DNA from: a virus
Taxonomy: Duplodnaviria > Heunggongvirae > Uroviricota > Caudoviricetes
Length of the DNA: 64,000 bases
Direction: 5' to 3' (one strand)
Virus record (IMG/VR): IMGVR_UViG_2541047850_000005
Span: 3,554 to 67,553 of that record
Part shown: piece by piece, positions 56,391 to 58,010 of the stretch
Numbering within the stretch: the stretch's first letter is position 1
How the letters are laid out: each line of letters starts with the position of its first letter
The notes under the pieces: model-generated
Told to the model about the DNA's origin: nothing
Databases searched by the model: none
Seen by the model: the letters and a program-made list of their open reading frames with translations, nothing else
Program-made: the position numbers and the translations under genes

Positions 56391-56777
56391 ATGTCTGACA
56401 AAAACATTGAATTTATAGAAAGTCGCTATGCTGCTTTTATCGCAGGGCTGATTGAATCCTCACCTATGAGTCAGGCCCAAATAGCCAGACTTATTGGTTA
56501 TAAAAATGCCAACAACCTTTCTTTAATTAAAAGTGGTAAAATTCCTTTGCCTATCGATAAGGTTCGTCCGCTGGCGTTGGCGCTGGGTATTGAGCCAAGT
56601 CGTCTTATGATGATGGTGCTGGAAGAACGCCAACCTGAACTCGCAGCATTTTTATACAAAGAAGGCACCGCTCCTCTTAACGAGGACGAAAAACAGGTTC
56701 TTGCTGCATATAACGAGCGATTCGGTAAAGAGAAAGGCGCATCACAAAAGGTTGTTGAGGCCATAAAGTCTCTATGA
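56391..56777 (+). CDS. XRE-family helix-turn-helix transcriptional regulator
   Basis: …SQAQIARLIGYKNANNLSLIKSGK… HTH signature; 128 aa; convergent with the recombinase gene. Confidence 0.65.
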   Translation: MSDKNIEFIESRYAAFIAGLIESSPMSQAQIARLIGYKNANNLSLIKSGKIPLPIDKVRPLALALGIEPSRLMMMVLEERQPELAAFLYKEGTAPLNEDEKQVLAAYNERFGKEKGASQKVVEAIKSL

Positions 56778-57875
56778 AAAATTTAGACGAATAAGCTCTG
56801 TTGATAGACGATCTCCCTTGAATTTGTGGTCAATTTCGTCTAAATCCGGTTGCTCTACGATTGATGCGATGTACGTTGAGAAACTTTCTAAGGCGTCTCG
56901 CATCTCGTCCATATAATCGTGCCGGTCGTAGACCCGATCTATCCCCTCAAGACTGTGGTTCATGATTTTGCGTGATACCTCCTGGCTTATGCCTAATGCT
57001 GGGAAGTAACTACGCGCAGTACGACGCAAATCTCGGGGTGTAAATGGCGCAAGCTCCATCAGTTCTGGTCGTTCCAGAATACGACGTAATGCCTGGGCTA
57101 TTGCCACTTTAGACATAGGAAGGTCTTTCCCGATTTTTTTATTCGAAGGCACGAGCCACTGGCTGTCTTTACCGTATTCGAACAACTCTTCAATGCATGT
57201 GCGCATTAATGTGCTTAAAGGCAGCGAATGCTCACGTGCTGACTTGTTTCTCTTGCCTTGATTCCAAACTCCACGCTTAAGATTGAACTCACTTTTTTTA
57301 GCCCTCAGTACTTCGTCAGGTCGTCTTGCTGATACAAGACACAGCCTGGCCGCCCATTTTGTACCAGCGCACACATTGAAGTAGTCCCATATATTCCAGA
57401 ACACCCATACCTCTGCGTCGGTCAGCTTCCGCTCGCGAGGTGTGGGCTTTGCGCCACCGGCAACTTTGTTTAGTGACATATCGTTTAACGGTGACACGTC
57501 TATCATCCCCTGGAAGGCGCACCAGCTAAGGAACTGCTTCATCAGAGAGAAAACGCGGCGGCCCATAACAATTTTGCCATCCAGTATTAGTGGGTTGACC
57601 AGTTGGTTCACCATGAACCTATTAATGTCACTTACTTTTACATCGGCAATGTGCGGCAAAACATGTATCAAAATACAATGAACAGCGATCTCTGGCCGAC
57701 GTCTGGTTATCAGCAGAGATAAGCGAGTGAATAACATGAATGCGTCCGAGAATTTCATATCATTGCTAACCTGCGAGATCATAACGGCCTGCATTTGAGA
57801 TGCTCTTTCGAGATACTCAATCGCCTCTTTTGAGGTGTTCTCAGCAGCGCGTGCTCTGTCAAAGCTATTTTTCAT
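56772..57875 (-). CDS. tyrosine-type site-specific recombinase/integrase
   Basis: 367 aa; candidate catalytic Arg (ARRPDEV), RDLRRTARSYF and HSLEGIDRVYDRHDY fit the R…H-x-x-R…Y pattern. Confidence 0.75.
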   Translation of the reverse strand: MKNSFDRARAAENTSKEAIEYLERASQMQAVMISQVSNDMKFSDAFMLFTRLSLLITRRRPEIAVHCILIHVLPHIADVKVSDINRFMVNQLVNPLILDGKIVMGRRVFSLMKQFLSWCAFQGMIDVSPLNDMSLNKVAGGAKPTPRERKLTDAEVWVFWNIWDYFNVCAGTKWAARLCLVSARRPDEVLRAKKSEFNLKRGVWNQGKRNKSAREHSLPLSTLMRTCIEELFEYGKDSQWLVPSNKKIGKDLPMSKVAIAQALRRILERPELMELAPFTPRDLRRTARSYFPALGISQEVSRKIMNHSLEGIDRVYDRHDYMDEMRDALESFSTYIASIVEQPDLDEIDHKFKGDRLSTELIRLNFS

Positions 57876-57901
57876 ATGACAATCACCGAGTTACGCCGAT
57901 T

Positions 57902-57921
57902 TACTGTATAAGTAAACAGTA
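57902..57921 (-). promoter_or_regulatory. LexA (SOS) box-like site upstream of recombinase
   Basis: TACTGTATAAGTAAACAGTA (CTGT-N8-ACAG) 27 bp upstream of the recombinase start. Confidence 0.55.
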
Positions 57922-57969
57922 TATTAGGCATAGATTCTTATAGGATCAAGAGTAAAAGTAACTCATTTT

Positions 57970-58010
57970 CAGTAATGATTCCATACATAGTAGGTATGGA
58001 ATCATTACTG
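57970..58010. repeat. perfect 17-7-17 inverted repeat (lox-like candidate recombination site)
   Basis: CAGTAATGATTCCATAC-ATAGTAG-GTATGGAATCATTACTG, about 95 bp upstream of the recombinase gene. Confidence 0.6.

Follow-up and report, generated by a model that had tools for sequence, protein, structure and literature searches.

In this study, we analyzed a 64,000-nucleotide (nt) stretch of the virus record IMGVR_UViG_2541047850_000005 (positions 3,554 to 67,553 of the record; the window), which belongs to a phage-plasmid of the SSU5/pHCM2 type, with the focus on its tyrosine recombinase gene, int, and on a palindrome upstream of that gene. We suggest with moderate confidence, from sequence comparison, that int and the palindrome together make up a stand-alone recombination module of the Cre/loxP kind, which would resolve multimers and exchange modules and would be repressed by LexA. 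The anatomy of the palindrome, its conservation, its co-variation with the recombinase, and a switch in the relatedness of the flanking DNA at the site are the observations that carry this proposal. A tyrosine recombinase has been described as a persistent gene of the SSU5/pHCM2 supergroup of phage-plasmids (PMC7969092). The window is 99.7–99.9% identical over three blocks, on the opposite strand, to Escherichia phage PhiR41_1, which is also the best match to the int region (99.7% over the query). Some 200 enterobacterial plasmids with sizes near 110 kb also match the int region, at 96–98% identity, as do several phages, and the relatives include the phage Cyrano and Klebsiella phage pJN2-26.

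The first-pass annotation, which was made from the sequence without database searches, had called the product of int a tyrosine recombinase, and this identity is confirmed by both domain and fold. The catalytic domain matches PF00589 (Phage_integrase) with 38.8 bits against a cut-off of 27.1 (expect value, E, 1e-9), the central domain gives a weak Phage_int_M match in Pfam, and the protein matches the PHROG 1 integrase with an E of 7e-46; a sequence search of the PDB matched no chain. The AlphaFold model, based on an alignment of 18 homologues, has a predicted local distance difference test (pLDDT) score of 80.7 and presents the two-domain C-clamp fold, with a Foldseek probability of 1.0 to lambda Int, Tn1549 Int, and Xer. 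Its closest structures are the core-binding and catalytic domains of lambda Int (E 1e-7; template modelling, TM, score of 0.58, with a range of 0.52–0.58), followed by Tn1549 Int and then by the Xer proteins, and the Cre chains rank 41st and lower (E of about 0.02, TM 0.45). The catalytic residues were assigned by motif position and not by structural superposition; R185, K211, R281, R284, and Y316 are invariant across the 18 homologues down to 43% identity, and H307 is kept in 16 of the 18 and replaced by Gln in two of about 60% identity.

The Int homologues form a compact family in the Enterobacterales, reaching down to about 43% identity. The next relatives are the P4-type integrases at about 30% identity, which carry the N-terminal arm-binding domain PF13356. 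This domain is confined to the outgroup; no match to PF13356 or a similar domain was found in Int with Pfam, and the N-terminus of the Int model is helical. By descent, Int groups with lambda/P4-type integrases that lost the arm-binding domain. It belongs neither to the Cre clade nor to the integron integrases.

The palindrome had been described in the first-pass annotation as a 17-7-17 inverted repeat about 95 bp upstream of int. The distance is correct, with 94 nt to the ATG, and the repeat is indeed perfect in the window, where CAGTAATGATTCCATAC (57970–57986) and GTATGGAATCATTACTG (57994–58010) flank the spacer ATAGTAG, but the conserved unit is only 13-7-13. The outer 4 bp of the arms (CAGT/ACTG) are restricted to PhiR41_1 and the variant with the fimbrial cargo. 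Palindromy reaches 15–18 bp in many lineages with differing outer sequences, the 17-bp arms of the window being one example. The single-stranded palindrome has a folding energy of −16.3 kcal/mol (z = −9.1), a stability that none of 200 shuffled sequences reached.

The palindrome was found in 113 IMG/VR contigs by a pattern scan. A protein-guided scan, with one genome per species, gave 65 int loci, nearly all of which have an upstream 13-7-13 inverted repeat, and the palindrome accompanies int homologues down to 45% protein identity. It is located about 45 bp from the ATG in one lineage whose Int is 58% identical (the 58% lineage) and otherwise about 95–280 bp. The arms vary together with the protein. 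Int proteins of at least 56% identity are associated with the ten inner arm bases GATTCCATAC, and those of 45–52% identity with GACTCCAGAC, the two substitutions being mirrored in the other arm; the latter group comprises Rahnella, Pantoea, Erwinia, Ewingella, Hafnia, Xenorhabdus, Photorhabdus, and Morganella. Arm positions 11–13 read AAT, TGT, or YTT and are mirrored in every case. The Cre/loxP-type layout that had been proposed for the site is thus retained in its arm-spacer-arm geometry and in the symmetric arm changes over 45–100% Int identity, but the functional arms would be 13 bp long.

The palindrome tracks int and not the neighbouring genes, because the distant loci keep it while homologues of the helix-turn-helix (HTH) repressor and of the cobT-like gene are absent around most of them. 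Flanking coding similarity was present in only 25 of 248 cross-genus locus pairs, and in Pantoea and Rahnella int and the palindrome lie among ordinary genes of plasmids or chromids. A distance of 20 bp separates the arm centres, and this fits two recombinase monomers and not a small HTH dimer. We consider it likely that the palindrome is the site on which Int acts.

The spacer is 7 bp, AT-rich, and lineage-specific in every locus found with the fixed 7-bp search pattern. The window and most of its E. coli relatives have ATAGTAG, and PhiR41_1 has the reverse complement CTACTAT (9688–9694 of its locus, L001) between flanks that are identical on both sides. Flipped pairs were also found in at least two other lineages (TTAATAG/CTATTAA and CTATAGA/TCTATAG). 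These repeated flips suggest that the orientation of the spacer relative to its flanks is not under selection, and such freedom suits a resolution site, for which only the two copies within a multimer must match. We infer that the flips and the lineage-specific extension of palindromy come from template switching at the hairpin, with an Int-dependent route as the alternative.

Three further observations touch the immediate surroundings of the arms. A 9-bp direct repeat, CATTTTCAG, brackets the palindrome at 57964–57972 and 58011–58019 in this cargo variant only, and it may be a trace of the origin of the fimbrial junction. Relatives differ from the window in the sequence right of the right arm; the adjoining 35 bp or so (58007–58045 and the equivalents in loci L008–L120) vary by cargo type and share a loose pattern of 6–10 nt, a T-run, and then AAWTCTGA or similar. 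A T-run also stands before the left arm, about five helical turns away from the right one.

A second copy of the palindrome, for which the first-pass annotation had proposed a search, did not appear: in the window and in the complete 108-kb PhiR41_1 genome, a search that tolerated as many as 7 mismatches in the two arms together, with spacers of 6–8 bp, found neither a full nor a degenerate additional site. A single site per genome points to resolution or intermolecular exchange, and excision or inversion of a flanked segment was rejected since a second full site was not found. Of 5426 complete E. coli genomes, 248 have the region of int and its site, at 250 places, all on plasmids and with the palindrome intact in the listed hits. 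None of the 250 places is chromosomal, and integration into the chromosome, which would split the site into attL and attR, was therefore rejected as well.

The palindrome also coincides with a change in the relatedness of the DNA on its two sides. Similarity to about 200 plasmids and some 240 E. coli genomes breaks off at 58006, where the 13-bp right arm ends, and 358 of 813 locus pairs combine near-identical left flanks with unrelated right flanks. For loci L050 and L116, identity is 82% on the side of int, as far as the left arm, and 99.8% across the site, and loci L038 and L102 are related to the lineage with the TTAATAG spacer by 74–75% on the left and 92–95% on the right. From these comparisons, we read the jumps in relatedness as recombination breakpoints inside or at the 33-bp core. 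They would fit Int-mediated fusion of co-resident elements which were resolved elsewhere, and homologous exchange via the conserved core would fit too.

A LexA-box-like site had been noted upstream of the int start, and it is a strong one. The box TACTGTATAAGTAAACAGTA, separated from the ATG at 57875 by 26 nt, agrees with the LexA consensus at 17 of 20 positions and scores 23.0 bits with a matrix of 21 known E. coli boxes, compared with 12.8–25.7 bits for those boxes themselves and maxima of 9.5–17.1 bits in 20 shuffles of the window. It has a fixed position beside the putative −10 hexamer of int, at whose final base it starts. In an alignment of 46 distinct upstream sequences, the −10 hexamer TAATAT is nearly invariant, the −35 hexamer TTGATC is kept, and the 17-nt spacer between them varies. 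The CTGT/ACAG of the box is invariant in the same alignment and its eight central positions differ by lineage, as would be expected of a LexA operator. Within 130 bp of the palindrome, 110 of the 126 scanned records, which include a few re-read alignment rows, have a box scoring 15 bits or more (median 23.5 bits). The motif CTG-N10-CAG is kept in every lineage with an Int of at least 79% identity and in one lineage of about 59%. The 58% lineage, in which the palindrome lies 46 bp from the ATG, has no promoter LexA box, and no LexA box adjoins int in the group with 45–50% Int identity. LexA very probably binds the box at 57902–57921.

Some other LexA-like and palindromic motifs were also seen. 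A second strong LexA box, TACTGTTTATCTGTACAGTA (10060–10079, 21.5 bits), is located just upstream of a umuD-like gene, the UmuD-like annotation being taken from PhiR41_1. A LexA-like 20-mer of 16.9 bits in the 3′ end of int (L105 2330–2349; likewise in L008, L010, L032, and L098) belongs to the 58% lineage without a promoter box and faces the convergent repressor gene; it was rejected as a real box, its score being within the shuffle range and its presence explained by the coding sequence. In the 5′ leader of int, non-E. coli lineages have another palindrome of 13 bp, CACTCAGTGAGTG, which is placed downstream of the LexA box and ahead of the start codon (alignment columns ~117–129); it is degenerate in the window (57880–57895).

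In the mechanism that we propose for the Cre/loxP-like module, each of the two 13-bp arms would be occupied by one Int monomer, and the strands would be exchanged over the 7-bp spacer. Two natural reactions are suggested because each replicon has one site. In the first, head-to-tail multimers of the plasmid-prophage would be resolved and incoming phage DNA possibly circularized; in the second, co-resident site-bearing elements would fuse and the modules on either side would be reshuffled. In the SSU5/pHCM2 branch, the LexA operator would cover the start region of the int promoter, so that Int would be kept low in undamaged cells and rise in the SOS response. That Int binds and recombines the site, that LexA binds the box, and what the module does for its host element are all inferred here from sequence. 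The LexA control might have several reasons, which do not exclude one another: more resolvase might be supplied when RecA activity raises the number of multimers, inter-element recombination might be licensed under stress by analogy with integrons, or the int promoter might feed the lytic switch, and several facts favour the last of these.

Single arms without a partner were also found near int. These lone copies of the 13-mer, extended to AATGATTCCATACATC, occur in dnaE, in int, and, in relatives, at two places about 1.2–6.7 kb to the right of int, which are about 1 kb apart (L002 10412 and 11412; L003 13165 and 14153; L004 10840 and 11852). The left copies are all on the plus strand and the right copies all on the minus strand, and every one points at the palindrome. 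The dnaE copy is an exact 16-mer shared with the left arm (TAATGATTCCATACAT, then C) and encodes CMESL in a variable loop of DNA polymerase III alpha. Among eight lineages, third codon positions vary in none of the 5 codons inside the motif versus 33 of the 36 flanking it (naive P ~4e-6), and by this measure the dnaE copy is under selection at the DNA level. The dnaE motif is absent in the lineage with TGT arms, whose right-hand lone copy likewise starts with TGT, and the distant GACTCCAGAC group has no lone arms within 3 kb of int. One of the right-hand lone arms supplies the ATG of a small gene starting MIPY.

PhiR41_1 has a further lone arm (80620–80632 of the record, L001 15584–15596) at the far end of the 6.4-kb fimbrial cargo, a place that lies past window position 64000 and beyond the IS2-like insertion of the window. 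With regard to the possibility that the fimbrial cargo was inserted as a circle and is flanked by hybrid sites, the far-end arm has neither a second arm nor a matching spacer. The 6.4-kb insert has no homology to other loci, and the two sides of the far-end arm are unlike other SSU5-type loci; this arm is probably the remnant of a backbone copy. Lone arms were rejected as classical recombination partners of the shufflon or integron style: the 7 nt adjacent to them match the spacer at only 3 of 7 positions in either orientation, they have no second arm, the first right-hand copy is inside conserved sequence and not at a cargo boundary, and the dnaE and int copies are both within continuous, conserved coding sequence. 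By analogy with integrase-fold repressors that have repeated sites, we hypothesize that the lone arms might be bound by Int in a regulatory or barrier role. The features of the int region and the lone arms in the window are listed in Table 1.

Table 1. Positions of the recombinase gene, its putative site and promoter, and associated features in the window
Feature	Position	Strand	Remarks
Lone arm TAATGATTCCATACATC	51946..51962	+	Inside dnaE (48694–52212, minus strand); points to the palindrome
Convergent HTH gene, putative prophage repressor	56391..56777	+	Overlaps the int stop by 6 bp
int, tyrosine recombinase	56772..57875	-	Open reading frame of 367 aa
Decayed lone arm CTTGATTCCAAAC	57257..57269	+	Inside int; decayed in the E. 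coli group, intact CTTGATTCCATAC in most non-E. coli lineages
LexA (SOS) box TACTGTATAAGTAAACAGTA	57902..57921	.	23.0 bits
Putative −10 hexamer TAATAT of the int promoter	57921..57926	-	Overlaps the LexA box by 1 bp
Putative −35 hexamer TTGATC of the int promoter	57944..57949	-	Conserved; 17 nt to the −10 hexamer
Left 13-bp arm AATGATTCCATAC	57974..57986	+	Palindromy to 57970 in this variant
7-bp spacer ATAGTAG	57987..57993	.	Asymmetric, AT-rich; presumed crossover region
Right 13-bp arm GTATGGAATCATT	57994..58006	-	Palindromy to 58010; outer edge is the homology break with most relatives

Several points weigh against a LexA-repressed module of the Cre/loxP kind. Homology breaks at the outer arm edge and not inside the spacer, and a conserved site beside variable cargo, together with homologous exchange, would look alike. 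It is not obviously useful for the SOS response to raise a resolvase at a time when the phage needs concatemers for packaging. The int promoter was not called by a strict consensus scanner, and its hexamers are therefore assigned from their conservation. The position of the first His of the H-x-x-R motif is occupied by Arg281 throughout the Int family. A literature search on both arm sequences and on SSU5 in combination with integrase or LexA found no description of the site or of its SOS control. Finally, a plain Cre/loxP scheme leaves lone arms under selection without a role, and such arms hint at DNA binding for purposes beyond recombination.

It has to be considered whether the LexA-controlled int promoter mainly triggers prophage induction and not recombination, which we regard as unlikely. 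The gene convergent with int encodes a protein of 128 aa with matches to HTH families only (a weak Pfam match to HTH_19, and PHROG 8), and its counterpart in Cyrano is annotated as a putative repressor that is expressed in lysogens (PMC9928086). After LexA cleavage, transcription from the int promoter would run through int and collide with or be antisense to the repressor gene, and the transcript may even extend into the leftward replication operon. The palindrome would still be recombined by Int, and the explanation concerns the purpose of the SOS link. In a broader form, to which we give similarly little credence, the int promoter would be the SOS input of the SSU5-type lysis-lysogeny switch, acting via convergent transcription or via Int at extra sites, and the lone arms within dnaE and int, like those at gene starts, would serve as functional binding sites of Int with a regulatory or polar-barrier role.

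This explanation is supported by the fact that Cyrano is induced by ciprofloxacin (PMC9928086). Because the putative repressor has no S24 peptidase match in Pfam, an indirect SOS input would be needed, and the only two LexA boxes above 20 bits in the element are those at int and at the umuD-like gene. Moreover, int and the HTH gene converge with no terminator-like site between them, and the pair is kept in every phage-plasmid lineage examined. However, the 58% lineage as well as Xenorhabdus and Morganella keep the convergent pair without a box at int, the convergent read-through is a prediction from sequence, the assignment of the repressor is an annotation, and a weaker or unrecognized antirepressor pathway is possible.

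Int might also be mainly a sequence-specific DNA-binding regulator like MrpR, YopR, and SroF, with the 13–16 bp motif as its operator, a role that we consider quite improbable. Repressors with the integrase fold have been documented (bioRxiv 10.1101/2025.11.27.690993), and MrpR and YopR are among the Foldseek matches of the Int model. The palindrome would then be a double operator by which int is autoregulated, and the lone copies would regulate or block other functions. Such a role would agree with the presence of single arm copies within about 6 kb on both sides, all directed toward the palindrome, with the constancy of the dnaE copy at synonymous positions, and with the TGT variant that one lineage has in both its lone copy and its arms. 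It would also agree with the 58% lineage, in which binding 46 bp from the ATG would affect the promoter. However, the catalytic Arg, Lys, and Tyr are invariant, and the match to MrpR is weak (TM 0.32, compared with 0.52–0.58 for lambda Int). In addition, the homologues on Pantoea and Rahnella plasmids keep the palindrome with no lone copies within 3 kb, and a regulator would leave the relatedness switch at the site unexplained.

It is highly improbable that the palindrome is an operator of the HTH repressor, a terminator or RNA hairpin, or a replication element. It does have a strong single-strand hairpin and flanking T-tracts, and it is located where the leftward transcription unit of the cargo ends. 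However, it is retained at loci that lack the HTH gene, its arm centres are too far apart for a small HTH dimer, its arm sequence is invariant within groups and without free compensatory change in the core, and it stands beside int on non-phage plasmids in unrelated contexts; the dispersed operator-like motif in this DNA is another palindrome, AAACAA-N-TTGTTT. The reading as an operator of the HTH repressor was rejected by the co-occurrence test, and the reading as an intrinsic terminator was rejected because none was called by the scan and the AT-rich stem has no T-run directly after it; the palindrome has no match in Rfam. The motif AAACAA-N-TTGTTT (13 bp) is present in 14 copies in the window versus 0.6 expected, mostly intergenic (at 3463, 6175, 6226, 19775, 20504, 42175, and 55852, among other positions), and is a candidate operator of a phage regulator. 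One of its copies is just upstream of the cobT-like gene and adjoins the putative switch region.

The recombinase had been placed at the boundary to an AT-rich fimbrial cluster, and the composition and gene content agree with this description. The G+C content drops from about 0.44 to about 0.35 immediately right of 58000, and the palindrome is followed on the right by genes for an AraC-type regulator, an usher, and a chaperone and by a further open reading frame with a match to Big_1 only (E 0.0044). The identity with PhiR41_1 stops at window position 63422, and the remaining part (~63423–64000) is what we take to be the transposase orfA of an IS2-type element inserted beside the fimbrial cluster. 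Farther to the left, a 23-nt repeat beginning with GTATGCTGTCAGCGGTAA is present in fifteen copies in two clusters at 38843–40598, with one more copy at 45504. The copies at 38843–40598 are probably the iterons of the plasmid replicon, and their number differs from that in PhiR41_1 around 40505–40575.

Phage-plasmids of the SSU5/pHCM2/pMT1 type are present in about 4.6% of complete E. coli genomes (248/5426) and also in Klebsiella, Salmonella, and Yersinia. They carry cargo, which here consists of fimbriae, and resistance genes have been reported on the SSU5/pHCM2-type plasmid family. The cargo region starts at the palindrome, which may thus be a module exchange point. If this is true, DNA damage, also that caused by antibiotics, would be linked through the LexA box to the exchange or to the maintenance of the plasmid. 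The Int family also represents a natural series of enzymes and sites, with two arm types, several outer-arm variants, and many spacers, whose enzyme-site pairs could become recombination tools orthogonal to Cre and Flp. The selected lone arms in coding genes present a testable puzzle about further roles of a simple recombinase.

The proposed module shares properties with several known systems. ResD/rfsF of F and XerCD at cer, psi, and dif likewise use one site per replicon on large low-copy plasmids or phage-plasmids, but their recombinases are of unrelated lineages; in the present case, no accessory-sequence architecture was recognized and SOS control is present. MrpR, YopR, and SroF of SPbeta-like phages have the tyrosine-recombinase fold and a cis element repeated at several places. 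In contrast to them, Int has conserved catalytic residues and only a weak fold match, and its element is clustered around the gene and not at lytic promoters. Among the lambda and P4 integrases, lambda Int is nearest in fold, and the P4 type is the nearest outgroup by sequence (about 30% identity). However, Int has no arm-binding domain, no integrated copies were found in the 5426 E. coli genomes, and the site is a simple symmetric core.

With the integron integrase IntI, the module has in common a LexA box that overlaps the promoter and a gene beside its primary site and variable cargo. It differs in that there is one full site without attC-type sites or a cassette array, and in that the cargo consists of a fimbrial operon which has a regulator of its own. 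Int resembles VchIntIA (E 1.5e-4) no more closely than it does other members of the family, and its site is a perfect double-strand palindrome, whereas the integron substrate is a folded single strand.

The Cre/loxP system of P1, and also Dre/rox and VCre/VloxP, consists like this module of a plasmid-prophage tyrosine recombinase without an arm-binding domain and, shortly upstream of its gene, a site in which an asymmetric spacer separates 13-bp inverted arms. Each genome has a single site, the element is never chromosomal, and multimer resolution and circularization are the expected functions. The spacer here is 7 bp compared with 8 bp in Cre/loxP, Int is outside the Cre clade and has P4-type integrases as its nearest sequence relatives, and the module of the SSU5-type phage-plasmid adds a LexA box in the promoter and extra lone arms. 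Despite these differences, by analogy of site and context, the module would in function be most like Cre/loxP of P1.

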